A DNA stretch of 64,000 bases from Psammoneis japonica (Eukaryota). The notes below the pieces were generated by a model. It did no database searches and was not told the DNA's origin. It worked only from the letters and a program-made list of their open reading frames with translations. The stretch covers positions 1 through 64,000 of the forward strand of contig QPGO01000267.1 in assembly GCA_008632985.1 (NCBI GenBank), in the 5' to 3' direction. A program made the translations under genes and the position numbers. Shown here piece by piece: positions 3,130 through 63,469 of the stretch. The first letter of the stretch is position 1, and each line of letters opens with the position of its first letter.

Positions 3130-6100
3130 ACAGCCCACAATGGCTCACTTGAACTTTCAGAACTTCTCACCCTGTGATGGCTCAGTCGTGAAGTCCACTG
3201 TCATTCTTTCATCTGTTGGGCAGCACTGTGCTCTCAGGCTGCCCTTCTCAAACTGATTTGCAACAAAAAACATCAGATGGCAAGTGCCCCAGACTGTTTT
3301 CCAGCACTCTTGCACCCATTGGTCTCAAGAGGGACATGGCACTCTTGCTGTCCTGACGTGGGACATTCTTGTCAATTGGGTGCCCTTGTTGGTGTTTCAC
3401 AAACAGTGTGGTCCACAGGACCACAGTCACAATGTTGTCAACTCTGATGAGTTCAGCTTCAGTGCTGCTTCAGGTGTTTGGTTTCTATCTCTTGGACATG
3501 GCCTGTGCATGGCTCCTTCACCCATCATCACAATGCCTCCAGTGTGGCTCTCATGTCTGGTGCACCATGATTGATGTGTCCACACACCACACTTGACAAT
3601 TGAAAGGTCTTTTGCACTCAGTGCAGCAATTTTGTTCCTTGTGCAGTTCAGGCACATGACACATCACACTGGCTTCCCCCAATCCTTGTTGGTTGGTTCC
3701 ATCACTCACATGCATGATGCTTCAATTGCAGGGTGCATGTCCATTTGACCTCTCTTGGACAGAAGTGGCCCTTTGGCCACCCACACATGGAAGAACTGTG
3801 CTTTGTCTGTCCACAACCTTGTGCCATCTGTGTCAAAGAGTTTCTCTTTTGATGGCATCATGCCAGCATCAGCAGTGCTCTTGACCCTCTCTGGAGCCTG
3901 TTTGATCATCTTGTGAACACACTTGATTGCATCAATCTTGACCTTGCTTTTCTTGCTGAAGTCCAGGGTCATCCCTGGACAGTCGTGTCTCTTTCCTCAC
4001 TTGGTCACAACAATTTCTCCATGCTGGCTTCTGCACATCTTGCCAAGCCAGCTCAGGAATGTGTTGTTGACCTTGCGGTTCTTGTGGCTTGACAACAAGT
4101 TGTCCATGTGGAATCTAATTGTGCCATCTGTCGTTGACTTTTCAATTGGCAATGCACGGATTGCATGGGTTGAACTTGAGCACAATTTTTTCCAGGTCTT
4201 TGCAAAATTGTTTGTGCCACAGCAGTGCTGCAATCAGCATGCCAGGTGTTGCTCAAACCACCTGGACGTGGCGGACTCTCTTCCTCTTTTCCGTGACCAC
4301 ATGTGGTCCATTTGGGTTGGGATTGTTGCTTGCTGGCATGTTGACCAACATTCCTGTGATCTTCATCATGATCCAGTCTTCTCCCTTCTCAGGCTCCAGC
4401 ACCTGGGTTTGGATGAAGGCATTCAGTGCATTGGTGCTCATCACATTGTGGTGTTCATTGGCATCAATGATGGCTGTCATCATTGCTCCTTTAAAAGTGA
4501 TGCCATTGGATTTGCTGATGTGCCCTTGTCTGGCCATTCTCTGGTCGGTTTTCCATTGCAGACCATTTGGCCTCTCACTGGGCCATCTTGTTTTTTGGTG
4601 AGGATCATTGAGGCTGCCAGAGCTCTCTTCCTCTCAGTTGGAGACATGTCCTTGATCAACATCAGTGCAAAGCACACCCTGTTGTGCAGTCATTTCACTT
4701 CTTTCTGTGATGCTTCATGTCCTTCTTGTTGGCCAAATGCCTTGAGGCCTTCATGCAGCAGGTGTTGTTTTGGGCAAGTGAGATGCCTTCTCCCCATTGG
4801 AGTCGGTCATCAGTCTCTCACATAAATTGCACTGTGACCATGCCTGACTCAATGTCATGTTCCATGTCCTGTTCTGGGTTGGGACTCACATTCACTCATG
4901 GATGGTGACAGCATTCAAGATTGCTTTGTCTGCACTTCTCCTCTTCTGTGTCTGCCACTCCTGTGTATTGCTCTTTTGTGTCTTGTTCTGATTCTTTGTG
5001 TCTTTGGTGATGTGTCACTGCACTGCATGCTGTTCTGCTTCTCACAGTTGAACATTCTTTGTGGGATTGGTTTCATTCAGAGCATCATCCTCATCCTCTT
5101 GACTGCTGTTGCCATCTTCTTGACTGCTGTCATCCTCACAATTGGCAACTGTGTTCTCATGCCGCTGATCTGAACTGAACCTTTTGTTGGCTGGTGCATC
5201 TTGGGCTTCATTGCACTCTTCATCTGAGTCTTCTTTGCACTCTTCTTTTTTGCTTTCTTCATCACTTTTTTGTTCTTTGTTGTTGCTTTTGCTTTTGCTG
5301 TCACTTTCTTTGCACTCCATTCCTTGAGTCCAATCAGTGTTGCTCAGGTTGTCTTTGCATTCCCCAAAAATTTGAGCACGTTAATCCCCTGGGCAATGGC
5401 CATTTTCTTGACAGCTCATGTGGCCACATTGGTCAGTGGGATCTTGATGCACTTGCAGGGGTTCAACAGTTTCCCATGTGTGAGTTCACAGTGCAATGTC
5501 TGCCCTTCAGAATGTCACATTGTGGTTGTGAGCATGTGGTGTCTGTGCCACAAGCTTCCACAGCATTTGTGACTTCTGTGGTTCTGTGTGGGACAGGACA
5601 AATTTTCCAAAGGAGCACCCAACATGCTTGTCACAACAGTCTAGATTTCATCTTTGCATGATTGCACACATGGACTGCACGTGTCCAAAATTCCCTCTTT
5701 CTGCAGGTGCACATTCAACATGACAGTGTTCTTGACAATGGCAGCCATGCTTGCACATCATCTTGGGCATTGTCTTTTTTGTGGCACATGGTGCGCTGTT
5801 GCTTGAGCTTGTTCTTTCACCATTTGGATGCTCTGCTCAACTTCCAGAATGTGGTCCTTGGCATTTGTGGATGTTGGCTCCAGGTTGTTCATGCCATTGG
5901 CAACTTCTGCCAACATGTCCTTGAACTCAACATTGCATTCAATGAAGTCAATCTTGAATGCAGCCATGCTGTGCTGTCACAGGATCATGTCCAGTGCATT
6001 GCACACACATCATCATGATTCTTGGACTTTAGTCTCACACTGGATCTGCACTTGATCATCTTGTCCATTGCATGCAGGAGCTCAACTCCGCATGCTTCCA

Positions 6101-6624
6101 TGACTCAGGATTGCCTTGCAGTCTTTGCTTCATCTGCTTGGCACAGCAATTGTCCAAGATCTTGGCAAACATGGCAGTTTTGTCATCCTTGAACTGTTCA
6201 ACCTCATCAAGGCAATCTCACATTTTCCTTTGAACAGCACATCATTCTCTCTGTCTTTGCACTCTTTCTCTCTCAGCTTTTCTTGGCAGTCTGTTGCATT
6301 GGTGTCTGGCATGACCACCATCAAAGCATTTGATGCAGCTTCTTGTGTGAAATCCTTGCACCCCACATCCTCAATGGATCTTGCTGAGTGCACTCCCTGC
6401 TCACACTCCTTGTGAATGCACTGAGTGATCTTCTTGTTTGCTTCTTCAAACATTGCATTGCAGGAGTTGCTGTTCAGTGACAAAGGATGAAACTTCACCT
6501 CAGCCTGAAAGTGATTTTTGTCATTGGGCCTCTTGTTGTTTGTAGACCTGTGCCTTCTGCCACCTCTTCCACCTTGACCTCCATGGTTTTGATGGGTTCC
6601 TCTGCCACCTCTTCTCCCACTCAT
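3130..6624 (-). pseudogene. Copia gag-pol relic (frameshifted, internally deleted)
   Basis: Gly/Arg-rich gag start at 6624. Integrase core HILEVEQSIQMVKEQ (5758-5967). RT motifs ERKRAL..KQDGPVRGQMVCNGKPTREW, NAFIQT and IRFHMDNLLSSH. RNase H motifs SHTGG and QDSKSA. No protease/GAG-pre-integrase region recognised between gag and IN. Confidence 0.9.
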
Positions 6625-6709
6625 GATGTGGGCATTCTCTCAATCCAATGAGGCAGCAGTCTCACAGCAAACAAACACCAACTCAGTGCTCCTGACTCTT
6701 TGGAGCAAA

Positions 6710-7060
6710 TGTTGAACTGACAAGTCAATGTCGCCAAAAGGGAACCCCACAAGGCATCCTGTGCTGCTTGTTGCACTTGTCCTGGCTGCTTTGACAACTG
6801 TGGTTTGCCTTGGCATCAATGTAAACTCTGCAACTGCCATGTTGCAAGCATCTCTTGACACCAATCAACAACCACACGCAAAAAGCAGATGATTTGCTCC
6901 AAAGAGTGAGAACAAAATGCACACATTCAATTGACATGGATGAGATTGTTGAACATGAAGAAATGCTCTTCTGATCCACATCAGAGATCAAAGATCTCTG
7001 CTTCAATGCATCCAGGTCACCTCACATGATGCCCGGGTCTCTCATCTTGTTGGTCCAACA
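6710..7060 (-). repeat. Copia 5' LTR
   Basis: Aligns end to end with 1391-1737. Confidence 0.95.
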
Positions 7061-9769
7061 CCCCCTCTCTCCAAAGCTTCTGGCCCAGTTGAAGTGGCTC
7101 ACTTTGCCAAAAACCTGTTTCTTGGTTGTCTCTGTCAATTTGCCTGCAAGCCAAACTGGCTCCCATCAATGGCAGATCAACAATGGCAGATCATGGGGTC
7201 AACTCCAGCAAGCATGACAACAAATGTGGGGGCCATGCTTTTCATCCACAGCACCAGACTTGCAACAGCACCAGATTCAGTGCAAAAGAAGCTTCTGGCG
7301 GTTTTGCAAATTGTCCTCCAAAGAGTGCTGTGACCAGATGATGGCATGCGACATTGTCAACTCATCTGTGCCTGGCATTGGATTTGACTGCTTGTTGAGC
7401 AAAGAAAAAATTGCCAGTTGGTGGCAAGAATCAGATTGAGGGGTCCAGGTGGTTGCTGCTTTTGATGTGTTTGCAGCTCATGGCAAGGCATTTTTGGCTG
7501 AGAGAACAAAAGTTAGCTTCTGGCATTTGCTGAGAAGATGTGCGCCCAGTTGTTTTCATCATCTGCGAAATTCCTTTGTGACATGCACACAACATTGCCC
7601 TGATGAAAGCTGGGCCTCCTCTTTCAACCAGACATGAAGTCATGCTGGACTTCAGATTTGTGCAAAAATGAGAGACTTGATGAGGAGAGAGGTGCACTTG
7701 GTTCAAGAACAATGGAAATGAGGGTGGCACAAGCTGGGAAATTCTTTGATGCAATCAAGAAGTGGGTGCGCACACTTGTTGCAGCTCAACAACAGAAAGA
7801 ATTGGATGTGCACACTTGCTTGTTGCAGATCAAAAACAGCCTGAGGGCAGAAGTGTGGAAGGCCAGAGGTGTGGCATCATCAATGAAGACCTTTTGGGCT
7901 TTGACAGCACAAAGGACACCACCCAGAGGTGACCAACTGCAGCTCATGTTCAAAGTTGAGCATGCGTCAAACAAAAGTGACTCAGCAAGTGTTGCCAGCA
8001 TGATGGCAAACCCTGCTGCTTCAACTTGAGGAACAAGCTCCAAGATGACAAGGACTGTGACAATCAGGGCAAGAGCAACTTCCAGCAACATCATTTTGGT
8101 TTGCTGTGGCTTTTGCCACATTGTTGCAACTTGGAACACCATGCACACAATGCCCTTCCACCACACAAGGCAAGACAGCTTGCTGTGTTTGGCTGCAAAT
8201 GTTGCAGGTTACAATGAGATGAACTGTGCTGTTGTTGCACTGGTTGCCATCCTGCTGGACAAAGGAAAAATGTGCCAGATTTGTGCAAAATCCTGTGTGA
8301 GTTTCTCATCTTTCAACTTGGTGATTTTTGCAGGAGGGTTGCACAAAAGGTTTTTTGGAGGGGGGGGGGGGGGGGGGGTGTCAGGCAATTTTCCAGGGAT
8401 GACAAAAATGACTGCATTTTCTTTCCTCTGTGCTTTCCAATTGCTGGCTTCTTTGACAGCACCAGCTCTCATTGCAAGGTGCTCTTTGCTGTCAGATTCA
8501 GCTCAACAAAGCCCAGTTTTCTGCCTCTGCAGCCTGCTGCCAGGCAACAGGAAGATTGCTCAGCTTGGCCAATTTGCTTGATGCTTGTTTCTTCCTCTGC
8601 AAGTCATTCAAGCAGCACCAAAGCTTTGTTGGATGCAACCAACAAACCAGAGTTGGGGGAAGTCCCATCTGTCAAGAGAACACAACCTCTTGGGTCACTC
8701 TGTAAAGTTGTTCCACCTTTTGAGCAGGATGCAGCCACCCAATCAAGGAAACATGATTGTTTGGAAAGGTGCTGCCAACGATGTTCTCTGACCAGAAAGC
8801 AAGTGTCTTGGGATGTGCGGGTGACCATTCTGAGAAAGTTGCACCCCAGCAGTCATCTGCGCTCTTGTGTTGTTTTCAAACTGTGCTTGGCAGTGCATCT
8901 GACACAGTGCAATTGGGGCCAAAGGTGCGAGATCTGCCTTCTGACTGGAGCATTTGTTGGAGTGCAAAAGTTGAGGCACAAAGGTGGCTGATGGAAACAC
9001 CCAATGAAGAGCACACCATCTTTCAAAAATTGGCCAACTCATTTGTTGTGCAACAATGAACATTTCAAAGACACTGGTGGACCTGCTGCTGGATGGTGGG
9101 AGGGCGACCAAGTCATTCTCTTGGAGTGGCATCATCAACTCTTGGAAGCTGTGGAAGCAAAATTGCCTGCCACACTTTGGCGCTGGCTCAGAGTGCTCCC
9201 TGAAAGTGCCACCCACCCTTCCAAGAGCATGTGGAGGGGGGTGGGATTGGCAGGAGGCATGTTCAGGACCTTGGGTGGAGATCTGACAATCACTGTGTCA
9301 CAAGCTGAGAGGGACAAGATGGAGGCTGTGGTCAGAGAGCTTGGCCTGTGCAAGAGCTGTTCATTGAATGGGCACAATCCCAGTCTTCAAGTTCAAGGGT
9401 CGTGAGAGGAAGAGCGAGGTTTTCTGGCAGAACATGAAATTCACACTGAACACCCGGCGATGTGGAGCAATTTGCTTCTCCTTTCCCATGACATCCAGCG
9501 GTGATTCGAATCGGTGTCATGGACTTGACGCATTTCACGGCGATCTTGTGCCGAAAAGCGTCATGATTCAGAATGAGCATTGCACACACGAAAGATTTTA
9601 CGTGATGATGTGAAACATGCTTTGTTGCCACAGAACGTTTTTTCCAATGCGCGATGAGAACAGCAGGAGCGAGTGAGAACCTGTCGTGATGGGAAGCTGT
9701 GAAAAGAGTTGCACAAAAACAAAAGAGCAACAAACGCACCTGAATTGTGCAAAAAAAAAAACCATGACA

Positions 9770-16648: not shown

Positions 16649-16704
16649 GGGGGTTGCATGAAAAATCGAAATTTTCATTTTCCCCTGTTTTTCACGTGTT
16701 TTCA
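16649..16704 (+). repeat. Left inverted repeat of the Harbinger element
   Basis: gttgcatgaaaaatcgaaattttcattttcccctgtttttc is matched exactly, in reverse complement, within 20388-20442. Confidence 0.95.
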
Positions 16705-17179
16705 AACATTTTGACTGAAGAAAAGTCGTCGTGTCGAGAAAGGGGGGCACAACTAATGTCGGTCGTCCATCATCTCGAGCATGCACTGGATGGCACCACG
16801 TGAGTGTGAGTCAGAGAGGGGGCAGCCAAATGTCGCCTTGTGACGTGCGCATCAGAAGCTCGCTGCTCGCGCCCCTGGCTTGAAGACGTCAGTGCTCTCG
16901 TCTCAATTGGCCACGCTCATCATTCGACCCACCAACGAGCTGACGTGCTGGGTGGGAGACATCATTGTTGTCATCACATCTGGCGGATTCAGCAGCAGCC
17001 TCAGTCATTGTAACTTTTGATGCTGAGACCGAGCTGCTGGACAAAGTTTTGCTGTTTTGCTTGTGCATCGCGAAACCCAACGAAAATTTGTTGCAGACAA
17101 GACAAACTGGCTCTCTTGCAGCTGTGACCAAAGAAATGTCACAATGAATGTTGCAAAATGTCCTAATTTCTCAATGGGT

Positions 17180-18247
17180 TCCCATTCATCTGAGCACTCC
17201 ACTTCAAAGGGTGTGCATCCCATCACAATGGAAAGCTGTGTGATGTTCGCCACTGCTTGGAAGACAAGGTGATGTGTCAATCGATCATGACGATGCGTTC
17301 TTGTCATCATTTGGAAGCGCTTGAACCAACCATTGACAGCTTCGTGGCGGGCGCGAGCGACAGTCTTCATGCACTGGCCGGCATTGCGCAGGCCGGTCGG
17401 GGCCACACAACACTGGCGTCCGTCACTGCATGCCCCATCAGCCAAGCAAAACTCTCCATCTTGAAGTTCACAATTGATCGCCTCTCGTGCTACACTCAAA
17501 TCAGGAATGCCAGCTGGGCAGGGGCCATTCACCCAAACTGTCCAACCTGTCTGAATGCATGCGGCGATTTCGCACCTGAGCCCTGCACCGTTGAATTTGT
17601 GCGAGTGCCAGATGGGGTCGAACGGCGATGGTTCGTTGATGCGATGGTCAGTGCCGTCCACCGTCACCTTGCACACACTGCCACTGTCATCCATGAACCT
17701 GTTCTCCCAATCAATCTGTGATGAAATTGTGGTGAATCAAATGTCAGTGCATTGATTTTCAAAGAGAAGTTGGAGTCATGGTGCGCACCAAGTTCAAATT
17801 CACAATTAGCGCCATCCCAACCCACACCCATTTTCTCAACGTATCCTCGTGCATGCCACCGCAGATTCTAGCCATCATGGTTTCAGTGTCACACAGTTTC
17901 AGAAAACAAAGTGTGCATGACAAATGAGTGGGTGGAAATCCGCGTGGGATGTTGCCATCATCTTCAAGAAGGCCCCACAACTCACACACTGCGTCTCGCG
18001 GAGAGCAGAAGCACGAGGCAAATCTGCGGTTCCAAATCCGTTGTGACCTCATTGGCCTCTGGATGACTGTCCCCGCAAGACAATCTGCTGTGGCTTTGGG
18101 CAGGCGCATTTGCATGGTGAGTGACACAGACGTGTGTTGCGCGCACGATGTTTTGTGTTGCATGCCAAAAAGATTGCTGCTGCGCCAGTTCCGTGCAGCA
18201 GTGTTTTTGTTGCCGCAGGTGGATTGATGGCCGGGTGGGGTTTTCAC
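17180..18247 (-). pseudogene. PIF/Harbinger (DDE_Tnp_4-type) transposase, two exons
   Basis: Motifs VDGTD..I.EP, W(H)SHKFNGAGLR(C)EIA, WVNGP, LADG and RARHEAVN. N-terminal exon ...FLKL(C)DTE...TLRKWVW. Intron about 17720-17785. Confidence 0.9.
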
Positions 18248-19062
18248 TCGTTTCCAACATCTGACAACAAGGTTTTGATGTTGGGCCTTTTAGCGAGATT
18301 CCCTTCGGGAACGCTTTTGGCGCGGTTTCGGAGCGCTTTTGGTGCGGTCCCGGAACGGTGGAAACACGGGAATGATGAAATGCCTGTTTTGTCGAATGGC
18401 ATTTCCGTGTTGGAGCCATTGGCGGTTGCCACAGATGTGGTTTAGCGCCAAACAATGCTGGCAGTTACAACAAACCCTTGCAGCTCAACTTGTGGCCACT
18501 GCAAATCAAAATTGTTGAGACTCCCAACAGCCGTTCTTTTTCTTAGAGAAAATAGAAACCTGTTTTGACGGGTGCACCTTTTTGCAATGAATCCATCTAA
18601 TCTGTTAAACTTTTACACTGTTGTGCCATGCTCAAACAGTTCTGACAACAGCGCGCTAATTGCGGTGCATCACATGTCTCATCGGCAGATTGAGAGGCTC
18701 CAAAGTTTGATTTCCGCACGAATCAGTGCAATCGAGAACGTTCTCGGAACAGTTTTGGAACGGTTTTGGAACGCTTTTGGAGTGGCATGCAAGGGAATCT
18801 TGAGCTCCAACACTTCACAACAGTTTCCCCCGACAGGCCTTTTTTTGGTTTTGGCGGTTGCAGCAATTTCAAATTTGCCGGGACTTGTGTGTGTGGGATT
18901 GACTGTCCCACACAAAGAGAGAGTTGAGACGGTCGTGAACAATTCAAATCGGAGTTTGGGATTTGATGCGAACCTTGCCACAGTGCAGCGAGCAACACGG
19001 CATTCAGAGGATTTGCAGCTTGCCTCATCACAAAATTGAGAACAGTGACCAACACACACACG

Positions 19063-20090
19063 ATGGTGCAAATGAACACAAGGAGCAAGTCAGTGCTTGG
19101 CGCTGACTTGAAGCCGCCTCCCGCCTTTCGAAAAAACTCGCCCGACTGGATGCTGCTCAGGGATCTCCTGTTGCAAAAAAGGGTCAATCCTGGAGCGTCA
19201 CCAAAGGAGGTTCAGTCTGTGCGTGCAGAGTTTTTGAAGTGTCCTCTTGCCAAATTTCGCACTCAGCTGCACAAGCTGAGGAAAGAAACTGGTTTCAACC
19301 TGCGTCAACGAAGCGCTGATGACAGCACTGCACCACCGGCAGATGATGGCACTGGTGGAAGCAAGTGTCGCCACATGCTGCACTTTGTCAAATGAAACAG
19401 AATGCACTCTCATGTTGCTCTTTTTTTCTCTTGACTGTTGTCCACTTGTTTCAAAAGGGGAAGACCTTGACATGGATGAGGACGAGCTCTCAGCCGATGT
19501 CGGCCTGCCGTCAGCCAAGGAAACTGGCATTTTTGCAGCTGTCGCCCCCGCTGCTTTGGACCCCCCAGCATTTGAGGACGACCAGACATTCAAGCCCATG
19601 GTTTTGCAGGCGACCTGCAAGGATTCTGTCAACAAGACAGACCATGTGGTGCTGGTGATTGCAGCTCCCTCAGGAGCATGCACTGAGGACCTTTCTAGCT
19701 TCAAGCTCACGGTGACGGGTGGTGGTTGGTTTTTACAGTGCACCTCCGAGTGGCCGGGTCACAGCATGGGCATGGACTCACTCCATGCTGTGCTGGTGGA
19801 GGAGGCACAATCCCAAGGAGACCAAGAGCTCAGGGATGTGCACAAGCGCCTGGGGGCACTTTCGCATCAGTTGTCCTCCATGAGGTTGTTGGACAGCGAT
19901 GTTTTGGCGTCAACAGCCGCTGTTCCTTTGCCCATCAAAGTGTCGAAAAAGATTGACAAAAGGCCCATCTTTTGGGGGGCAAGGATGGTTCAAGAATTGT
20001 GTGTGTTGACCTCAAAGCTGAGGACTCAACACACCGCTCCATGGAGAGCCCCAAGGTTGTGTTGATTGACGGCACCACTTGTGTGGAGAA
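19063..20090 (+). pseudogene. Harbinger second ORF (putative DNA-binding partner protein)
   Basis: Divergent from the transposase and inside the inverted repeats. Basic helical N-terminus, probable intron ~19360-19455 and a late frameshift. Confidence 0.6.
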
Positions 20091-20387
20091 GTGGGGTGTG
20101 CGGCGTTTCTTTTCATTTTGCACTGTTTTGGTTTTCACAGCAGCAACAAGGACAAGTGTGGCGGCTGTCATTGGAAACACCAGCAGTTTGGAACATTGGT
20201 TTGGTTGCATTGTTCTTACTTCTTAGCACAGCAGTGTCTTTACGTCTTAGTTTCAATCCACAAAACATCGTTGACAACAACACCGCGTAGCCTCCGCTGT
20301 TGGCTACATCGACACGAGTGCGGGCTGCTGCCTCGGCACCGCAGTCGGCAGCATCGGCTGTCGGCATGCGTGCTGTTCGCACGATCC

Positions 20388-20442
20388 TGAAAATGCGAGA
20401 AAAACAGGGGAAAATGAAAATTTCGATTTTTCATGCAACTCC
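20388..20442 (-). repeat. Right inverted repeat of the Harbinger element
   Basis: Near-exact reverse complement of 16649-16704. Confidence 0.95.
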
Positions 20443-28065: not shown

Positions 28066-28240
28066 TGCAAGATCTAGCTTGAGATGACTTGATAAAAGTT
28101 GTGGGAGAACCGAGGAGAGACCCCATCATCGCTGATGCAGCCCAAACCTAACGGTTTCCCGCATGTCTGACATGTTGGTTAACATGCATGCACCAGAGAG
28201 GGCACACTCGGTCATAGAGTGAGTGCGCCTGTCTCATTCA
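28066..28240 (-). repeat. Gypsy 3' LTR
   Basis: Colinear with 33499-33673 and adjacent to the PPT. Confidence 0.97.
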
Positions 28241-28347
28241 CTCTTCCCCTCCATGGTGCAAGGAACACGTGCACCATTGGAACCACTTGACTAAAATTCA
28301 AACCCACTGGGCACGGAGAAGGGAACCCAGACATTGGGAAGAAACCC

Positions 28348-31300
28348 TCAACTCCGATGCGGCACCACACGGCGAACATTGATTCGCTCGACAACGTGCG
28401 GTGCTCGCAGCACCGAAATGGTCCCGTTGGCGTGGACTTGTGCAATTCGAAATGGACCACAAGCTCGTTCTTCCAACTTCGAAGGATCCACCGACTTGAT
28501 CAACACATCTTGACCAACCAGACAATCGCAGAGGAGTGTCGCTTCGCATTCTGTCATCGTAGATTCTCGTCGATCAACACTTGTCGGTTGGCTTGTGTCG
28601 TTGCGAGGTTGGAGATGACAGGCAGGTCCAAAATCACATCACGTTGAAACACTGGAGCTCCACTTGAAACACCCACAGACCTTGAGTGGGAGCATCGCAA
28701 AGCATGAGAGGCTGTGGCAAGGGCATCGTCCACAATCTGCTCGGCCTGTTGAGCCTTTGAAGGTGGGTTGGCAAAAACCACAGCACGCAAGACATCAGCT
28801 GCCGTCTGGTGCATTCATTCACAACAGAGTTGGCTGTGGGATTTTGAGACGTGTCAGAGCATCAGCAACACCCGCTTGATTCAGTGGCATTTGGAATTCC
28901 CACCAATGAATTCTCCACCATTGTCATGGATGCATCGATTCGGTCTGGGACAACGAGCCAACCAAAGGTTGCGAAACTTGTTGTCACATGCTGAGAAGTT
29001 TTGTTGTCAATGCGCATGAGTTCAGTCAATCCAGTGACAGCATCAACACAAGTGAGAGTGCTGAATTCAATCTCTTGATCTTGAATCAGGATCTTCCATG
29101 GTCCAATGAGATCACTGCTGCTTCCATCCACGGAGCCAACGGCGCTTGACGTTGAGGCAACTCTCCACACCCAGGGCCCAGTTGTTTAAATGTTGACACG
29201 CATCGCAGACAAATTCATTGCAACATTGACGCAACGCAGGATGATGCATGTGAGTCCGAATGCTTCACACAATCGCACGACTCCCAATGGCCCAATGCAC
29301 GATGATGCCATGCAATGACATCCGGCAACAACGCAGCAGGAACACAAATCTTCCAGGCTCCAGGCAGATCATTCAAATGCAAACAACAACAAATCAGGGG
29401 ACGATGGTTCACAATCTTGACCACAAACTGCTGCAGATTTTGTTGTCTTTGCTGGTTCAGTTGGAGGTCTTTGAACTGGAACTGTTGGATCCTCAATGTC
29501 TCAGCAGGTTCAGCATCTCGTCCAGTGTTGGATGATTTAAAAAGCATTCAAACAATTCAGGCTGTCAAGCAGAGAGGAAAAGGCAGTGTGAGACTCATCA
29601 GAAGGATCAACAGGAGCATGGCAACACTTGAACCTGCAAGCGCCCAACTCCAAATCTTCCTCGTCCTTGGCCTTGGAATCCAACTTTTCAAAATGAACAT
29701 TTTTCCTTTGCGTTTCCCACTTGGCCCAAGGCTCTTCCCCTCCAAAGGCGGATCCACACGTGGCAGACAAGAAAAACAATCGGCAAGCACGTTTCCTTGC
29801 CTTCGACATGCTCAAACGCAGGTGCAAAATCTTCGAGGAACAGTGCCAACGAAGGACGCACTGTGTGTTCAAAGTGCGAAAGGTGAGATTTTTGTGATCA
29901 GCATGAACAGTGATGTCAGCACCGAGCAGCATCGAGTGAAATTCTTTGAAGCACATGACGACGGCAAGCAGTTCCTTTTCCATTGTCGAGCAGTTTTGTT
30001 GAGCCGCCGAAAGTTTCTTAGACCAGCACGCCACCGGTTTGCCATCTTGAACAATGGCGGCACCCATTTGGCAGTCTGATGCATCGGTGTAAACATGGAA
30101 TGGCAGGTTGTGGTCAGGGCAGGCCATCAATGCTTCCGCCGCGATCCTGCTTTCATCTGTCGAACGCTTTCTGACATGATTCCGTCCATTGGAACTGACT
30201 CTTGCCTGTCAATTCAGTCAGAGGTGCAAGCAGGTGAGAACGGCAAGGCCACATGTTACGACAATGAGTTGCTGCACTGAGAAACGATCGGAGTTGAGCA
30301 GTGTTCCGTGGAGGTTGCATTCGTAGAATCGCCTCGACTTTTTCTTCCACGGTTTGCTGCCAGTCGGAGCAAGCCAATGCCCCAAGAAATCGGTTTCTTG
30401 AACACACCACTCGCAATTCAACGGATTGACTTTTAAACCATTCTCTTCGAGACAATGGCACCTTGTCAAGACAAGAGAGATGGCAATCAAAGTCAGCATC
30501 AAATGCTCCAATGTCATCAACACAAGTTTCGACACCCAAACCATGAAGGATCTTTTCAATGATGGACTGAGCAATGTCTGGAGCTGGCTTCAATCCCACA
30601 GCCATGCGACAGCACTGAAACTTTCCACAGGGAGTTGCAATTGTGGCGAGCTCCTTGCTTTCATCGTCCAACTCCAAATTGCAGTAGAACACAGTGAGAT
30701 CCAATTTTGTGAAGAATTTGTAGCCCGCTCTTCATTGTAGCACATCTTGAACAACCGGCAGAGGATGCACTTTCCACTTGAGGACCTCATTGAGCTCCCA
30801 AAAATCTGATGCCCATCACACTCGACTGTCCTTCTTTGGAGTGATAAAAGCACCAGCTGCCCATTCCGCAGGTCCACATGGTTGCAGCACGCCGAGATTC
30901 ACCAAGTGCTTCAATTCCTTTTTGAACGCTTCTTCATTAACTCGAGCAACAGGAAACGGTTTTGAGTGACAAGGAACAGCATTTTCATCCACTTCAAGGT
31001 GCCTTTTCATGAGGACAGTGGCCCAATGTTCCGTCAAACAAAGTCGAATGCTTTTCCAACACCGCCAGCAGTTTCTTCTTTTGTTCTTCCATGAGATGGT
31101 CCAGATTCCGAACTGCCTCCGCCGGATCCGTCGCTTTGCACTTGGCATCGAGCATGCAGGTGTTGCATCCGCAGTCCGACTCTCTTCACAATCTTCATCA
31201 AATTCATCCATTCGGTCAAAGCAACACGCCAATTGCAGGACTTGGACCAATGACGAGGCTCCTTCATTGGGATTACGTGGTCTAACCAACGCAGCATTCT

Positions 31301-33190
31301 CGTGTCATAGTTCAAATTGAGGCCAATCTCACCAAGAAATCTTGACCCAAAATGACATCATGCGCACACGGAGCATCGAACACGTGAGCCACACAGCCGT
31401 CAATCCTCCTGGTCTTGTCAAATTCGGCAATGCAATGTCGCTCAAGGCCACCCAATGACCCGACTGGAAAGGACCTGCAACGGTTTGAAAAGCTCGGACT
31501 CCATGTTCATCAATGGATGGCACGGCTCCTTGAGGTAAAACTTGAGACGAGATCATAGTGTGAGAACCACCTGAGTCAAACAAGACACGCATCACATGAT
31601 TCGACTCATGCTGCTGGATCAATTTTGCAACAAGCAGTGCAGATGGGACCAACGCAGCACGCGAGACTTGCGATTTCATTTTGGGGAGAGGAATGTGATG
31701 CTCAAATGCATCTTGATCGAACACGTCCCCCTCTTCATTCATGTGATTTTCTGTGGCATTTTCAAATTCAACAGGCAACAATTTGTCAGGATTTTCAAAA
31801 CAATCAAAAACAAAACATTCACCATTTCTTTCAGGCAAAACACAATCATTTTCATCAACAAGTGCTTCTCTCACAGGCAATTGGGAGCACTCAGTTCCGG
31901 AGCATTCAGCTCCTTCTTCTCAGAACTGCCGAGGAAACTGCCCATCTGGCTGAAACCTCACCACACCTCCATGATGTGGAGGGCCTCGTCTGATCACATC
32001 GAAATGGCGCACATCACCACAAGGAGCTTCTGAGCCTGGTTGTCATTGTTCACATTGTCTGCTTGAGCAGCACATCCGTCGGCCTGACCTTGGCCTCCAC
32101 GGTTGTTGTTTTCAACATGACAATGCTGACCACCACCTTGGTTGCCATTGTTGTTTTGGTGTCCATTGTTGTTGTTGTTGTTGTTGTTGTGACAGGTGCC
32201 ACGACCTCCTTGGCTCTGGTTGCCACGACCACCAAAGCATCCACCGCCTCCACGGCCTTGTCCACGGCCTCCTTGGAAACGACCTCCGCCTCAACCTCCA
32301 CTGCCACGGCCTCCTCCTCAACCGCCACGGTTTTGAGGCCCACGATGGTTGGGGTTGTTTGGTCATCATGACACTGGCCCCATGTGTGCCTTCCATGGTG
32401 CCACGGGACCGGACACGGATCATTCGCCTTTGGTTGGCCCTTGCCATCCTTCTTGTCTCGGTTGCCCTTTTTGTCACTAGAGTTCCCTCCGTTGCCATTG
32501 TTGGACTTGCGCTTCTTGTTGTCCTGACCATCAGTGAACACCTTCTCATTGCTCATGGGCTTGGACATCCACCATCGAGTCCGTAACAAGGTTCTTGCCC
32601 GCACGAATGCAAGACTGCTGCCAGGTCAAAGGGAAGGTGCAGAAGACAATGTTTTTCTGCTCCTGCTCTGTAAGTTCAGGAACGGTTCCAGGCAAACGGT
32701 CAGTGCAACGAAACAACATTTCCATGCGATCAATGTGAGTTTCTGATTCCGCTGAATGAGGCTTTTTGCAAGTGGGCAAATGCATCTTCATCGTGTCGCG
32801 AGCTGTTGGTTTCACGCAGCGCAAACAGCAAGCCGAGATGGCCTGATTGAATCGAGCCACCGTCCGTTGATTCTGTTGGATGCCCGTGGCAACATTCTGC
32901 CATTTTGCCTCTGCAGCACCCTGAAGACAATCCTCGAAAGCATCAAACAATTCTGGTCCGGTGTCACAGTCGAGCTGTCTTGCCACCTTCCGGAACCCAT
33001 CCTCCACCGTGCAACAATGATTCAATTCCATGCTCTCCTGTGAAAATGGGACACATTTTTGAAAGTTTAGCACCATCATCAAAGGTTTGAGTGAGCTTCA
33101 CTTCCTGCAATTCTGAATCCATGAATTTGGTCTTACACTCAATGCACGCTTTCTCCAAGGCTTCTTGACACATGGCAATGAACAATTTCA
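28348..33190 (-). pseudogene. Gypsy gag-pol relic
   Basis: Gag knuckle CPVPWHHGRHTWGQC. Protease VLFDSGGSHT. RT FITPKKD, TKLD.., ETCVDDI. RNase [20 protein letters not shown]. Integrase DLIGPW and DNGGEF, with a GPF motif. Confidence 0.93.
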
Positions 33191-33498
33191 GCAATCAAAC
33201 AATCAACAATTCACAAGATGAACAAAACAAAGCATTCCCAATTGATCCACACAACGAGAACAATTGACAACCAAACAAGAACGAATTCAACAGCAGCAAC
33301 ACGAGCTTCAAGTTCAAATGAACGCTGCTCCAAATCGCCAATTTCACGAGCATGATTGCGCTGCGATTCTGATCAACTTCGAATGAAATTTTCTGCATGC
33401 GCTCGCAAACAGATTTTCTCTCTTCTCGACAACCCTCTTCGTGTTGTCATAAAACTGACAATGCAATGAACAAGCTGTGACAACGACTGTAATTGCAG

Positions 33499-33673
33499 TG
33501 CAAGATCTAGCTTGAGATGACTTGACAAAAGTTGTGGGAGAACCAAGGAGAGACCCCATCATTGCTGATGCAGCCCAAACCCAACGGTTTCCCATGTGTC
33601 CAATGCGCCAGTTAATGCGCATGTGTCAGAGAGGGCACACTCGGTCATAGAGTGCATGTGCCTGTCTCATTCA
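33499..33673 (-). repeat. Gypsy 5' LTR
   Basis: Colinear with 28066-28240. Confidence 0.97.
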
Positions 33674-34222
33674 CAGCCAACACCACTTTCACATGTCCCA
33701 ACTAAATGTCTCACCCATGGCACTGCCAGATTGTGCAGTCTCTGGCTGCAAAGTGACACACACACTCCAGCCCCAGGTGTGGGGGGGCGGGGGGGGGGGG
33801 GGGGGGGGGCACATTGTCAACTGTCAACCAACCAGTGCAAATGCAAACAACTTCCAACAGAAGAAGACACAGTTTTTTTTTAGCGAGTGACACCCCCGTG
33901 CTGCAAGTGCATCATTTCTCTAGTGTGGCAGCAAGCTGTGCCTTGCAAAGACACCAAAAAGCATGCTGGCAAAATGACAGCCAGCTCAGCTGCATCCTCA
34001 GAAATGAACAAAACCAAGTGCCCGCTCTCTCACACAAAATGGAGCTTGAAAAAGTTTTGCAAAAGAGCTCTGCTGTGCATGCAAAGCACCACTGCACCTC
34101 CCCCCCATTCTGACCCTCAAAGATGTGACTCTTCTGGCCTGCTTCCCCCTCCACAAGTGTTGACGAGGCTTCATTGTGCACTCAACAATGCTGGAGCTGA
34201 GTGACACCTTAAGTGGGGGAAC

Positions 34223-40980: not shown

Positions 40981-41095
40981 GCGGGACCACACAATACAAG
41001 GGATCGAGTGCTCGAGGGGCGACCTCCATTTATCACTTCCATCCGACAACAGCACTTTACATAAGCCATCATTGGAGATCGAAGCCATCACCATC

Positions 41096-56850: not shown

Positions 56851-57399
56851 TGCTATTGCTTCGGCCTTTTTTGCATTGCGTAAACTGGATACTGATTACC
56901 GCAGACAACGTTGATAAAGACTCGAAGTGAATTTTTTACTGGACGAAATCCGCCACTCAACTCACCCACGAAATAACACACGATGGCCTCGGTGTTCATT
57001 GACTGAACTTCTCGACCAAAAGAAGTGATTATCTCTGTGTAATCGCTTGGTAATCGTCTCTCTCTCCCCTGTTGAGGCGGAACGAAGTAGTCGTTCGAAA
57101 AACTTCGGACTCGCGGATATGATTTCAAATTCTTGTTTTTCAAGCTGATTGAAGTCACTTATGAGGTAAGGCAATAGAACTCTTTCTAAAATAAACCATC
57201 ATGAGGTTATAAAGACATTGTTTTACTTATGGTATGGAAAACACCAAATTGCGTACTGTACGTACTAACTGTAGAATCAGTAGGCCCTCCAGGCTACACA
57301 AAATCAAAATGTCATACGATCGCTGGGAAACCTGCAGGCGGCGACGGCGCGCGGCGTTCATGCCGGTTCCGCATCGCTTCCAGTCGCGGTGCCGCCACA

Positions 57400-60300
57400 C
57401 GTCTGCAACTCTTTTTGTGGAACCATTTTTGCCTGTGAATCGCTGCTCAATCAGAGCCATCATTGGACCTGCAACCGATTCGTTTGGGTTGCTGGGGCCA
57501 TGTGTGTCATCAAAGTGAATGTCCGAATAATGCGGTGCACCGTGGAAGTTGTTTGAGAGCTGATCACCTCACATCATGGTCTGGCTCCTGCAGCTGGTCT
57601 GTGGCACCACCAAGTTCTTCCAAGCCGCAGATTCAACAATGCAGTTAATAATTTTATCCTCATCAATGTGAGACAGAGCATCCACAGGCAGCTTGTCATG
57701 AGCTGTGATACAAACTCAGTGATCAAACTTTTGGCATGTCTCTCGCTCCTTCTTCTTGTGCCCGCTGTGCCACCAGAGCAGCATCAACTGCCTCTGATCT
57801 CACAACGAATTTTGGATTGGGAGATTTGTGCTCCTCCCAAGATGAACAATGCTGCAGTGACCAAATGACACACTCAGCTGACTTTGGCATGACATCTCAT
57901 TTTGACACTGCTTCCAAGAAGCACCGGCCAACCTGGTCTCGCACAAGCAAGGCGGCCCGACAGAGCGGTGACTCATCCACCCACCTTTTGTGTGCACTCC
58001 ACTCAGTGACACAAGTGCCATCCACCTTGGGTGGTGTGATGGTTTGGGCCAACAAGTCTCCTGTGGAGCCTGGAGATGCCATCTTGGGTCTCTCTCATTT
58101 GAGTTGAGACAGCCTCAGGGGATTGTCTTTTGGGGGTGCACCCTCCTCACTGTCAAAAGAAAAGAGGTTTTTGAAGTCAAATGCTTGTTTGCAGAGGTCA
58201 ATCATTGGAGCCATTTTGAATTATTTTGGCATTTGTTTGGTGAAAAAAAAAACATGTCAGGAACTTGAGCACCATCAAGGCCACAGTTGACTCAGCTGTG
58301 TTGCAAGATCTTTTGGCAAAGTTTGGAGAGCTGTTGTGCTGAATGATGGTGATTTGTGTCAGGGAGCAGAGGTGCTTTGGCAATGCGCTCTCTCTTTGTG
58401 TGTTCTGAAGCCCAAGCTCAGCAAAGGGAGATGTGATGTCCTTGCTTGGCAGCACACAGTTTTGGGCACCACTTTCATTCAATGCCAGCAGGGTGCCAAC
58501 TGTCATGCGAGGTGCATTTGCATGAACACACAGCAGCCACAGTTGCTCCAATGGCAGAGTCTTGCTAGACAAGAACAACAGTGTGAAGAACTGAGCACTC
58601 ATGAGATGTTGGTGGCATTTGATCAACAGTGCATTGGCCTTGGACAGTGGGGCAAAATGAAGTGGGCCACACAAAGAAAGACATCGGGCTGGTTGTGATG
58701 ACGGCACATGTGCCCAACTTGGAGAAGATGACAAGATGCTCCTTGCCATCATCAACACACATTTTTCTTCATTTGGCCTGGAGAGTGCTGTGGAAAATGA
58801 GGGTCATTGTGAAGGACAAAGCACCAGCACCCACACATCAAGCCACCAGGGGGGCAGTGACATGATTTTTTTTTTTAAACCAGGCCTGCTGGGGAGCACT
58901 GGCCATGGCGCAAGTCCCTCCCCTCCAACGCGTGCATGTGGTGCTGCTGGAGGTCAGCCCAGCAGTGGATGGTCAGACAGCAATCATGCATGCAGGGCAC
59001 CCTGCTGCCAGGTTGTGCATGGTGGAATCAATGGCAACACAATGACTGTTGTGCCAGATGGTGCCATGATGGGCAACTTGGACTGCTGTTGCACTGTCAG
59101 ATGGTTCATGTCAAGTTTGGGGCTGTGTTCTTGCAGATCATTGGCTGTTGTGCCTGACTCATCATTGTGTCATTTTCATTGCTGCACATTGATGCATGGT
59201 GCAAATCTGAAAATGTGTCATCATCAATTGTTCCTCAATTGACAAGCTGAGGGCAGGAATTTGGATCATTGCAAAATTCAAGAGCACAGTGCTGCAGGTG
59301 TTTTTGACATGTGGTGACAGCATGCCAGGGTGCTCATCTGGCATTGGTCAATCTTCCATGTCACCTCATTTTTGTTGATGATGTTGATTCTCATTCACAG
59401 CAAACAGAGAGTTTGTCATCAATGGCACATCATTGGCATTGCAAGTGTGCAAAGTTGAACACAATGGCTTGCACCAGCCAAGCAAGCTGCACACAAGAAC
59501 GCTGGACATGAGAAAGGCCACAGAATGGCACATGGCAAAGTGGCAAAAGATGCTTCAACACCTGCTTGTGGAATGAAGAAATGGTGCTGTTGCTGCCCCC
59601 AGAGTTGCTGCATTGCACCAGGAGTGTGGGGTTGAAAATTTCAGAGCCAAGATTCCAATCAGTGAATGAGTTGGCATTGCAAGAAGCCTCTGAAGTGCAC
59701 CTTGTTGGATTGCTTGAGGATGGCAACATTTTTGTGCCATTCATGCCAAGTGTGTTGCCATCACTCCCAGAGACCTCATGTGTTGGCTCAATGCATTCAT
59801 TGGTCATGGGGGGTGTTTGCAGAAGAGAGGGCTGTGGTCTGTTGATTGGAAGCAAGAAACATGCATGACCAGTTGCAATGATGTGTCATGGGTCATGGGT
59901 GCACATGTCATTTGGCTTCCAGTTCAATGATGACAAGGTGGTTTGTGTGTGTTGTGCATTGGCAGTGCTTTCTTTGCAATGTTGCACAATGGTGTCTTGC
60001 TTGTGATGTGTTGTCTCATGTGGCATTGCACACAAAACTCTATTTTGGGATGTTGATGAGCAATGTGCAATGTCTTGCATCTGTGTTTGACAGAGCGATG
60101 AATTCATGCAAATGCAACCACAGCACAGCACTGACCTTGTTCATTTGCAACCTGCATGATGATCACAGAGTCTTTCAGCCTCTCTCATGCCATCACACCT
60201 GCCACAAACATTCATGTGTGGGCAGCATTGCCACAGCATGAGAAAGGACACTCAATGTCAGCAGACAAGAAGCCCCACATGCATGCATGCACACTTGACA

Positions 60301-63100
60301 AAAGCAAGCAACTCAACCTTTCATCAACAACTCAGACACCAACAAATGTCATTGAATTTGATGCTTCACAATGACCCCAAGGCCGCCAAACAACATGGAC
60401 GTTCTTTTTCTTGTTGTTTGCCACCACCAAGTCAGAAAACACAAGAAGATGGAAAGAAACTGCTGCAAGATGAGAGGCAACTTGGCAACCAGAAAAAGCT
60501 GCAGCCCTTTTTTCTTTTGATGCAGCCTCCAGCTTCTTCCAGCTGCTCCGCTCAGAGTGCAAGCTGTTGCAAAATCCAGCCCTCCACAATCCTTGACAGG
60601 ATGTGGCACTCCACTTGTTGCTGCCACACAAGTGCAGCACATGTGTTTGTGTGGCTTGCAAAAAAATGTGGAAACATGGTGAGTGAAAATGCTGAGTTTG
60701 GCTGCTGTTGTTTGGGGCTGTCAAAAACAATGAAAGAGGAGCTGTCACAAAATGCAATGCAGCCAGTGTTCAAGAGGGCAAACTGGCTGGTGCAAAGAAG
60801 CCTTGCCCAAACAAGCACAAATTCTTCTGTTTCCTTGGTGTTGGAAATGGCTCTGCCTGAACTCAGCTGCACAGCCACATGCTGCCTGCAATGAGTGGCT
60901 CCTCTCAAGTTCAAGAAAAGGAAACAGAGGAAAGACAGTTCATTGACTTGACATGAAGTTCATTGTGACATCTCTGTTCATGATGCAGCGGGGTCATTCT
61001 CCACCAAAGACAAAACTTGCCAGGAAGGAGCGACAAGAAGAAACATGATGTTGTTTGGAAACCTGTTTGTGGCAGCCAGCAGGCATTGTCCTGCACAAAT
61101 GTGCACATTGCCAATCTCTTTCCTGATGCAGGGGGAGGAAGCAGCAGCCTGCAATGGCAACAGCAGTGCCAGCATGCTGTGCCACAAAGTCCAACTTGGG
61201 TGCAAGCATTGTGTTCAGAGTTTCCCACCAGCTTGTTCTCTTTGGCTGTCATTTCAAAGAGGTCTGCAATCACAGCCCATGGGTTCTTGCCCAATTTTTG
61301 AAAATTTGAAACTGATTTAACCAACTTTCTGCACTCACAATTGCACCTTCCATCTGGGAGTTGCTTGCAGCACCAACCACAGCTTTTGATGCAGTGAAGA
61401 TCACCACAGTGCCCCACAATGGCACCTCCCTGTTCTTGCCTCTGTTTTGGCCACACAACAGACATGTGCAAAGGAGCCAAAAATTATGGGAGGGTTTAAA
61501 GCTCCTCCTGAAAATAGAGATGCCTTGTTGCTTCAATCATTTTCTCAAAGCACTTCTTGGGTGTGTGTTTTCCTTGCCACAGGGGCCATTGGCAGGTGCT
61601 TCTTGGGGCTTCATCATCTGGCAAAAGCACCACAGCAGCTGCAGGGTCAGACCTCACACATCCCATGTTGCGAGCACAGCAGTCTTTGAGATTGAAAGGG
61701 GAAAATGGGCAAGTCAACAAAAAACAAGCTCTTTGTTCCTCAGCAGATGAGTTTTTGATGCTTTGCCACAAGAAGCTTTCCCCTCAGAGTCCTCGTCATT
61801 GTCCTGCCTTGTTGTTGTTGCCACCACAGCTGTGCTCCTTGGGAGGCAAGAGACTGATCCCTCTCACAGCCACATTTGTCACCAGCATGGCCACTGTGTG
61901 ATGTGTCATCATCTCACAGTTAAATTGTCAAAGTCTTTCATCAACATCATTTGTGACATTTTTAGATTGTTGGCTGCATTCTCAAGATTCAAAACATCCC
62001 TCATCTCACAAAGTCAGTCATTGATGTCTCTCTTCAGTTTGCAGCCATGCTGGTTTCTCCATGGAGAACACTTTCAACACCATCTGCTGTTGCACTGCAA
62101 CCTTGAGTTGCAGCTCTCTCATTGCAGCTCTCTCATCAACACAAGCTGTTCCACAAAATCTTGGCTGGTGCGAGCCCCAGCCGGTGCTGCGTGGCACTCA
62201 TTCTGCCACCAGAAAAGCACTGTCAGTTGGTCCACTGAAGCTTCCATCTGCTGCCAATGTTGATTCATTCATTTCAACCAAATTGCCATGTTGTCTCTAA
62301 TTCTGAATGACATCCCCCGTTGGTGTCAGACAATGCTGCACCGACACCCCCCTTCCACTGCCATTCCTCGTTGACAAGCTGGTGCCAGCGCTTGCACGTG
62401 CCAAGGAGCCAACCTTTGATCCCCAACACACTCCAGTTTGAAACGTCATTGCCAGATCATTTCAAACCAAACCCAGGCTGAGTTCCTTTGACTCTCTGAG
62501 TCCCCTGTCCATCACTGACTGTCACTCAAGTGATGCCACATTGCAGGATGCTCTTGTTGCGCTGTTGATCATCAAGCTTTGCTTGGCATGTGGGTCCACA
62601 AGTTGTTGACTCAAGAGCATCTCTGTTGGTCCATTCTTGAGTTTGTTGCATGCATCAGGCACTGCAGCAGCTACAGCAAGTCATCCTTTCAAGTCTCTGC
62701 CCCATGAACACACGCCTGTTGCTCCCACACAACTCCCCCCCCTTCACCAGCTCTGTTTTCCAAGATCCAGCATGAGTCCAGCACCATTCTCTGCAGCTCT
62801 GCCATTTGAAGCATGACTGTCTGCAGCACCACTGACCATGGGTCCACCACCTCAGCCACTGCCCCTGTGTGGCGGACCTCGTCAAACACTGGCTTTTCTT
62901 TCGACACTGCGACTCTCCCGCTCCTCTTCTCACTGGCCTCTTCATTGTGTCTTTTGTTGTCTCACATGTGTTTTGCGCTGTGTTTCCATGATGACCAGAT
63001 GATGCACTCCACGGCACAAGCACCAGCAACAGTGAGGATAACAGCTCCAAACAGGTGCAGTGGTTGCAGACCGAAAGTCTTCCATCAAAATTCAAACAAC
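57400..63100. mobile_element. TA- and CG-depleted hypermutated domain, unclassified, with gene relics
   Basis: Near absence of TA, and centrally of CG. Abrupt edges. Contains a histone H3 relic. No transposase recognised. Confidence 0.7.
59464..59810 (+). pseudogene. Histone H3-like pseudogene
   Basis: MA(C)T..., GMKK(WCCCC)P..AL, RFQS...LALQEASE(VH)LVGLLEDGN and CAIHAK(C)V(A)ITPRDL. Confidence 0.88.
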
Positions 63101-63469
63101 GAAAAACCCAACACACACGATGGGTGCTATCTAAAGCTTGCCAAACAATGGGTTATGTGCCATGTGACCAATTCAACGCGTCGGCTGTCCATCGAAAAAA
63201 ATAATTATTGATACTCCGGGTTTCTTGCTGTTGTTACGCAGATGTCTTTTGTCGATCGGAATTGAGCATGCAATTCAAAAATTTCTTCCAACTTCCACCC
63301 ATCAATGGACTGTTTGCCGTCTCTTGTTTATTGTATCATCGCAGAGACACCACGAGTCTTTCGTTGATGTGTTAGTTCAAAGGACCTTTTGGTGAAGTGA
63401 GGGGCGAAACTCTGATTGACAAGAAAGACGCGCCAGAGATTTCTTTTAAAAAGTGCTGCAAATCCAATC

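Follow-up and report, generated by a model that had tools for sequence, protein, structure and literature searches.

A histone H3 pseudogene in a TA- and CG-depleted domain of Psammoneis japonica marks the direction of two dinucleotide-specific transitions

Introduction

Hypermutation directed at TpA has been described once before, in a 2026 preprint on an unrelated alga, in which mutation-accumulation lines of Bigelowiella natans showed TpA-only hypermutation of two integrated viral regions (bioRxiv 10.64898/2026.01.13.699255). According to the text of that preprint, rates were about 6e-7, 230 of 231 mutations were A>G or T>C changes at TpA, and 124 TpA-poor clusters were enriched in DDE and reverse-transcriptase domains; its authors proposed an ADAT2-like adenine deaminase (10.64898/2026.01.13.699255). 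The same text makes no mention of CpG or of diatoms, and its supplements may hold more (10.64898/2026.01.13.699255). Many diatoms are described as carrying DNMT4 enzymes of unknown function that are related to RID, the enzyme of fungal repeat-induced point mutation (RIP) (Hoguin et al. 2023, PMC9998398). The present analysis concerns 64,000 nucleotides of Psammoneis japonica DNA (GenBank assembly GCA_008632985.1, contig QPGO01000267.1, positions 1 to 64,000 of the forward strand; hereafter the window) and, within this stretch, a dead histone H3 gene embedded in DNA from which TA and CG have largely disappeared. This H3 copy is probably a pseudogene of canonical type, located in an old 4.9-kb block and mutated in place by two dinucleotide-specific transition processes. 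In full-text literature searches, no report of a TpA signature in diatoms was found.

Results

Identity and decay of the H3 relic

The H3 relic lies in a mutated domain between two genes of normal composition. The features of this domain, with observed/expected ratios (O/E) of dinucleotides, are:

57319..63128, unstranded, hypermutated intergenic domain (CG O/E 0.19, TA O/E 0.05, CA/TG O/E 1.88)
57319..58185, unstranded, high-copy repeat (summed contig depth 460-1050 compared with about 60; CG 0.51, TA 0.10)
58186..63128, unstranded, old H3-bearing block (single-copy by depth; CG 0.13, TA 0.04)
59464..59813, plus strand, histone H3 pseudogene (PDB phmmer, codon alignment)

An initial annotation, made from the sequence without database searches, had recognised an H3 relic here, and both phmmer matches to PDB and a codon alignment confirmed it. 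The dead gene extends on the plus strand from an ATG at 59464 to the last alignable codons near 59813 and is readable across three plus-strand frames (59400, 59401, and 59402). Its frame-59401 piece, PRFQSVNELALQEASEVHLVGLLEDGNI, matched PDB sequences with a best E of 1.5e-4 over H3 residues 80-111; 160 PDB sequences were found at E<=1, and all of the best 60 of these 160 were H3 or CenH3. The H3 match recurred when the read-through frame of the relic block was used as query. For the frame-59400 piece, FCAIHAKCVAITPRD, which matched H3 residues 108-125, the best E was only 0.69, and 50 of 53 PDB matches at E<=10 were H3, the other 3 being HIV capsid. This weak match was read as H3 because it is colinear with the frame-59401 piece. 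The N-terminal tail, in frame 59402, gave no PDB phmmer match and was alignable solely by codon-aware, signature-aware alignment. The Pfam Histone family was unmatched for 58 open reading frames (ORFs) of at least 60 residues and for six read-through frames, and no other Pfam family reached or approached its curated cut-off. A protein homologue search with the relic ORF returned 9 candidates, none of which was scored.

The relic was aligned at codon level, with tolerance for frameshifts and a scoring that favours the mutation signature, to 14 intact H3 genes taken from 20 viral-contig loci. This procedure aligned 113 codons, 59 of which were identical to some reference residue. The relic starts as M-A-R(TGC)-T, after which an insertion of 4 nt moves the N-terminal tail into frame 59402; this tail reaches KK-W-C-C-C-C-P, with TGT, TGC, and TGC at R40, Y41, and R42. 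One additional C near 59600 leads to frame 59400 (P-R-V-A-A-L-H, R49 read as CAC), frame 59401 applies from R83 (AGA, 59650) onward, and two additional nt near 59727, after N108, lead again to frame 59400 (CAIHAK-C-V-A), with small indels near 59780-59805. In total, four frameshifts and the absence of about 23 codons disrupt the ORF, and the ATG frame has an in-frame stop (TGA) at its codon 16. The codon readings of the initial annotation (ATG GCT TGC ACC at the start, GTG CAC at 59695-59700, and AAG TGT GTT GCC at 59748-59759) were found as written.

The deletion of an internal block, also noted earlier, agrees with the arithmetic of the coordinates: residues 1-50 occupy 59464-59622 and R83 lies at 59650, so that the stretch from residue ~51 to residue ~82 lacks about 23 codons, with exact borders that are ambiguous, as a plain BLOSUM frameshift alignment and some phmmer alignments put the gap elsewhere. 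The signature-aware alignment was preferred over the BLOSUM alignment because in it residues 1-50 use all of the DNA of 59464-59622. In this alignment only, the N-terminal tail (ARTKQTARKS...KKPHRYRPGTVALRE) is kept at K4, Q5, K9, K36, K37, P43, V46, A47, and L48, while R8, R17, R40, Y41, R42, and R49 read H/H/C/C/C/H. Measured against a best-case ancestor, the aligned codons together require 28 changes compatible with the signature, along with 24 transversions and 15 transitions of other kinds. These counts indicate an old relic, or one derived from an H3 that had already diverged somewhat.

Direction of both changes

The 350 nt of the relic contain 1 CG, 0 TA, and 87 TG plus CA, compared with medians of 41.5, 10, and 54.5 in the 14 intact H3 genes (about 408 nt). 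At positions where the reference has Arg or Tyr, the relic showed TGN or CAN in 11 of 17 cases, as against 4 of 88 comparison positions, at which the reference residue is not C, W, H, or Q (Fisher p 5.3e-8). Both aligned Tyr codons are now TGC and CAC, and three Arg residues persist as AGA or AGG, codons free of CpG. Tyr is encoded by TAY only, and H3 varies little between organisms. Because H3 is near-invariant and its Tyr codons must be TAY, TA and CG were lost from this copy, not natively missing. The direction of each change follows from the codons: what were CGN for Arg and TAY for Tyr now read TGN or CAN. That the relic polarises CG>TG/CA and TA>TG/CA was the central claim of the initial annotation, and it is upheld by the codon and dinucleotide counts. 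Its additional proposal, that a host-type gene within such a domain is altered too, agrees with the occurrence in the H3 relic of the same signature as in the transposons of the window.

Composition of the mutated DNA

The DNA of the window was grouped into three classes:

Both-depleted class, 13.6 kb: CG O/E 0.08, TA O/E 0.03, CA/TG O/E 1.91
TA-depleted class, 12.8 kb: CG O/E 0.60, TA O/E 0.08, CA/TG O/E 1.61
Normal class, genic DNA, 35 kb: CG O/E 0.97, TA O/E 0.61, CA/TG O/E 1.16

Only the O/E ratios of CG, TA, and CA/TG departed clearly from those of normal DNA. In the both-depleted class, the other seven dinucleotide classes differed from normal by at most 0.12, except GC (1.21 compared with 1.02); AA/TT and AT were unchanged in mutated DNA, and G+C was 47.4% in mutated and normal classes alike. 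The four pyrimidine-purine steps summed to 3.93 in the both-depleted class and 3.90 in the normal class, and such a conserved sum is the outcome predicted by conversion of CG and TA to TG and CA. TG and CA outcomes were about equally frequent and showed no clustering in runs (z -0.6 and -1.3), which indicates that both strands were affected, site by site. TA loss precedes CG loss: younger elements have TA ratios of 0.08-0.10 at CG ratios of 0.67-0.75, while in the old element and the H3 block both are near zero. Depleted tracts coincide with two long terminal repeat (LTR) elements, one element with terminal inverted repeats (TIRs), the high-copy repeat, and unidentifiable blocks, and genic DNA is spared.

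Among the TA steps that survive in depleted tracts, 13 of 70 lie in TTAA (3.7% in normal DNA) and 17 of 70 in CTAA or TTAG (7.9% in normal DNA), while none lies in GTAC or ATAT. This survival pattern suggests a sequence preference that extends beyond the dinucleotide.

In TA-free tracts such as 1-9400 and 57319-63128, TAA and TAG are gone and TGA is the only stop codon left. Spurious ORFs of 130-300 residues occur there in all six frames and constitute a trap for gene prediction. Three short tracts (9400-10650, 33675-35150, and 39940-40990) have TA O/E ratios of 0.05-0.08 and have lost CG in part (0.31-0.75), with no element recognised in them.

Mutation of transposons in place

Self-BLAST of the window revealed three transposons:

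1391..7061, unstranded, old LTR element (LTRs 1391-1738 and 6710-7061, 82.7% alike; CG 0.08, TA 0.03)
16650..20442, unstranded, DNA transposon (55-nt inverted ends, 92.7% alike; TA O/E 0.10, CG 0.71)
28066..33674, minus strand, LTR retroelement (LTRs 28066-28241 and 33499-33674, 86.4% alike; TA O/E 0.09, CG 0.67)

The two LTRs of one element are identical at insertion. Of the adjacent mismatch doubles between paired LTRs, 11 of 16 in the element at 1391-7061 and 6 of 12 in that at 28066-33674 were exchanges of TG and CA, the result expected when the same ancestral CG or TA decays by one step in each LTR independently. Single differences between CG and TG/CA and between TA and TG/CA were also present. 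Since the LTR pairs diverged by this signature, mutation occurred in place, after insertion. Of the 11 TG/CA doubles of the 1391-7061 element, nine have CA in the left LTR and two have TG there, which may reflect a local strand bias, although the number is small.

The DNA transposon, presumably Harbinger-like by our reading of its ORF, contains a DDE- and transposase-like ORF of 243 residues with zero Tyr. Its 55-nt ends differ at only 4 positions, and about 85% of the expected TA is gone. TA loss begins approximately 30 bp from the left inverted end and ends approximately 57 bp from the right one; in this TIR element, the only one in which both ends were open to checking, the signature begins near the ends of the transposon.

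For the retroelement at 28-34 kb, RNase H was compared with 136 homologues, drawn from the best 150 in a search of 1.84 billion proteins. Consensus-Tyr columns were changed in 5 of 6 cases (4 TGC, 1 TGG) and Arg columns in 4 of 5 (2 CAC, 1 TGC, 1 AAG), compared with 21 changes in the remaining 77 columns (Tyr, p 0.011; Tyr and Arg together, p 8e-4). In related RNase H loci from metagenomes, TA O/E was 0.47-1.11 in 80 of 80 cases, and the retroelement family is therefore not natively TA-free. One related locus on a metagenome contig (L093) had a CpG O/E of 0.07 at a TA ratio of 0.66, a CpG-only decay that is unlike the pattern in the window.

The high-copy repeat at 57319-58185 could be compared with its other copies. 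Among 23 listed of the 34 differences, the window has TG or CA in 11 cases where other copies have CG (8) or TA (3); 2 differences run in the opposite direction and 10 are unrelated changes.

Structure and copy number of the H3-bearing domain

Mapping of every CG and TA, together with ratios per kb, upheld the earlier description of a mutated domain around the relic. TA depletion spans 57316-63128 and encloses a CG-poor core of approximately 57970-62170, with CpG loss graded toward the edges of the domain. Depth was calculated from contigs of one DNA run that contain the region, and these contigs, with the 64-kb window, were also the scope of the search for copies, at a likeness of at least 85%. 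High depth was limited to 57204-58339. Across the block 58186-63128 depth was 58.7-61.8, with 61.8 for the contig covering 59271-60315, compared with 58.4-61.3 in the flanking genes. Other copies of the repeat at 57319-58185 have flanks unlike those found here before 57319 and after 58185. This repeat probably arrived later than the H3 block, as it is less decayed.

Self-BLAST of 57400-63100 against the window returned only the query itself, and no terminal repeats of at least 20 nt (LTR or TIR) bound the domain 57319-63128. No second gene was recognisable in the block 58186-63128 with PDB phmmer and Pfam on six read-through frames. Searched against PDB with phmmer, all six frames of 58186-63131 together gave H3 alone; noise at E 0.22-0.86 came from two minus-strand frames, and three frames had no match. 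A weak P-loop-like match at GASSSGKST (61518-61898, plus strand, inside the H3 block; ABC_tran, E 0.011) fell below the cut-off and may be due to chance. The ORF at the left edge of the domain had a best ESM Atlas score of 0.75, which was uninformative. A divergent H4 relic beside H3, looked for by eye only, was not seen, nor was an intact or expressed H3 copy among the searched contigs.

The contigs of the DNA run matched the region with 0-4 differing letters per contig. The window departs from the single-copy contigs at nine sites, which show no clear signature; only the one at 59500 lies at a CG.

Neighbouring genes

Best named relatives of two intact genes in the window are in diatoms (Asterionellopsis, 56%, for one; an MMETSP entry with a name beginning 'Gram', 80%, and Craspedostauros, 72%, for the other), and by these genes the organism resembles a pennate diatom. 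Among the sequencing runs listed as containing the region, none is an RNA run. Contigs of another run (X2), whose kind is uncertain, cover the flanking genes and leave 57204-63167 uncovered, which is not evidence on expression. They skip 55547-55634, 63597-63711, and 63811-63901, stretches with ends GT..AG (CT..AC for 55547-55634). The skipped stretches have the appearance of introns spliced out of the two flanking genes, and X2 resembles transcript data. A Ser/Pro-rich ORF at 54680-55552 (minus strand) has internal direct repeats at 54349-54949 (48 and 173 nt, 83-92% alike).

Discussion

Two transition processes and their alternatives

Mutation in place by two processes probably accounts for both halves of the pattern. 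A fast, nearly saturating process would convert TpA to TpG or CpA, a slower one would convert CpG to TpG or CpA, and the H3 block and every transposon of the window would have been altered where they stand. The TpA part may be an enzyme-driven host process against silenced or foreign DNA, of the kind seen in B. natans, while the CpG part would be ordinary deamination of methylated cytosine. Several points weigh against this interpretation. The "active defence" is something that we infer, and the B. natans preprint is, in its text, without a CpG component, so that the two processes may be unrelated (10.64898/2026.01.13.699255). The 11 of 17 Arg/Tyr positions come from a scoring that rewards the signature and could draw TGN or CAN onto Arg and Tyr; within the half for which phmmer gives support of its own, 5 of 7 such positions read TGN or CAN. 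Reference H3 genes were those of viral and metagenomic contigs, from organisms other than that of the window. The LTRs of the 28066-33674 element keep 5 and 3 TA per 176 bp at an interior TA O/E of 0.08, an uneven decay. The 80 metagenome loci were chosen by conserved motifs, which favours intact copies and says little on the spread of the process, and the DNA run may be the source of the assembly itself and is not independent proof against an assembly artefact.

The origin of the H3 copy is a separate matter. The initial annotation had suggested that a mobile element or virus captured H3 as a counter-defence cargo, and this is not what the data show: the block has single-copy depth, no LTR or TIR, and no other recognisable gene. 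Copies of 57400-63100 with shared flanks, sought by self-BLAST and contig depth, were absent for 58186-63128, and a lone pseudogene without shared flanks, the alternative named in that annotation, is what was found at a likeness of at least 85%, although more diverged copies may exist. The proposed placement of the relic among canonical, CenH3, and viral H3 relied on the 14 reference proteins and gave no preference: its C-terminal half is 50-62% identical to each of them, a canonical-like tail can be traced, and the loop-1 region is deleted. We read the H3 copy as a lone pseudogene, a casualty of the process and not a working cargo. It is unlikely, though worth weighing, that the block belongs to a mobile element or integrated (giant) virus with an H3 gene of its own, and that the host later hypermutated it as foreign DNA. 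Hypermutated regions in B. natans are, in the text of the preprint, single-copy integrated viruses, so that single-copy foreign DNA can be a target (10.64898/2026.01.13.699255). Twenty IMG/VR contigs, 9 of them named GVMAG, have canonical-type H3 genes, changes of the relic outside the signature at rarely varying positions (FEDTN>LEDGN, IMPKD>ITPRD) would fit a variant ancestor, and the H3 block has no recognisable host gene. Against such an origin, the block and its surroundings contain no recognisable viral or transposon gene, LTR, or TIR, a scan of viral contigs with the relic ORF yielded no relative, the relic is equally distant from all 14 references, and the depth of the block equals that of its flanks; moreover, 4.9 kb is far too short for recognising a giant virus. 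Among the IMG/VR contigs, one (L007) encodes a 149-residue H3 with an extended N-terminal tail, and others encode variants or partial copies. No H4, H2A, or H2B gene was found by motif in the 20 viral H3 loci.

For the process itself, the signature could in principle have arisen without any dedicated mechanism, by drift of old heterochromatin to an equilibrium of methyl-CpG decay and a weak TpA bias. Slow, independent events would leave TG and CA unclustered, as is observed, and TA is already under-represented (0.61) in normal DNA. Drift is nevertheless quite improbable, given that the DNA transposon lost some 85% of its expected TA while its ends differ at 4 positions, that TA loss runs ahead of CG loss, that tract borders are sharp to tens of bases, and that a TpA-only rate 1000 times background was measured in B. 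natans, as its text reports (10.64898/2026.01.13.699255). ADAR-like A-to-I hyperediting of RNA before reverse transcription, by which copies would be born mutated, has in its favour the UA preference of ADAR, which fits TpA, as discussed in the text of the same preprint. It is very improbable here: the DNA transposon with inverted ends shows the signature to the same degree as the retroelements, paired LTRs of a single element came to differ by it after insertion, both strands are affected without clustering, and CpG loss would be left unexplained. Least credible of all is that the composition is native, as in foreign DNA that avoids CG and TA, or stems from assembly or sequencing error. In three genes that are not related to each other (H3, RNase H, and transposase), one-step products have taken the place of Tyr and Arg codons, relatives of the retroelement have normal TA, and Logan contigs match the region with only 0-4 differing letters each.

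Implications

The H3 pseudogene is ordinary in itself, and its value is that of an internal ruler for TA and CG loss. Together with the transposons of the window, it points to what appears to be a second lineage in which selfish DNA is hypermutated at TpA, in this case almost to saturation, from close to the transposon ends at the element that could be checked, and in combination with CpG decay. A wider reading, which we put forward tentatively as possible, is that diatoms have an active TpA-directed genome defence, by adenine editing or thymine modification, that picks out transposons and other foreign DNA to within tens of bp and belongs to an old immune editing system of stramenopiles, alveolates, and Rhizaria (SAR). 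Almost every TA would then be erased well before CpG decay catches up, and with TA would go all Tyr codons and two of the three stops. The SAR-wide age would follow from its presence in a stramenopile and a rhizarian, and the H3 relic would represent a host gene that had been duplicated or else a histone introduced by foreign DNA and destroyed by this system. If general, the phenomenon bears on transposon silencing in diatoms and on the role of RID-like DNMT4 or other enzymes, as well as on gene prediction, since TA-free DNA yields long false ORFs, and on the search for natural DNA adenine editors.

Comparison with known systems

The relic resembles canonical H3 in being colinear with it over residues 80-125, and the N-terminal tail and KK-x-x-RYRP become visible if the signature is allowed for. 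It differs from canonical H3 in being non-functional (frameshifts, stop codon, and a deletion of about 23 codons), and its decay is too great for separating H3.1/H3.3, CenH3, or viral types.

Fungal RIP changes C to T mostly at CpA and thereby enriches TpA. The window shares with RIP the inactivation of transposons in place by transitions and the ruin of host genes caught in the target. The composition is unlike that left by RIP: TpA is erased here rather than enriched, and G+C is 47.4% in mutated and normal DNA. As to duplication, the trigger of RIP, transposons are affected, but so is the 4.9-kb block at single-copy depth (at a likeness of at least 85%). Decay of methyl-CpG is matched by the change of CpG to TpG/CpA, which is confined to transposon bodies, slower, and graded toward domain edges; it covers only half of the pattern, the slower one.

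The closest resemblance is to B. natans as described in the text of the preprint (10.64898/2026.01.13.699255). In both organisms the changes in the A:T part are TpA>TpG/CpA only (TA O/E 0.03-0.10 and CA/TG 1.6-1.9 in the window), the effect is limited to foreign or selfish DNA while genes are spared, single-copy DNA is affected too, and clusters are poor in TpA, rich in CpA and TpG, and enriched in DDE and reverse-transcriptase domains. B. natans is a rhizarian chlorarachniophyte, whereas the host of the window is a diatom-like stramenopile. Depletion in the window is near total, compared with a TA O/E of 0.45 reported for the nucleocytoplasmic large DNA virus (NCLDV) region of B. natans (10.64898/2026.01.13.699255), and at the TIR element of the window depletion has its borders close to the two ends of the transposon. 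TpA loss in the window goes along with a second, slower decay of CpG to TpG/CpA, which the text of the preprint does not mention; a mutation rate was measured in B. natans only.

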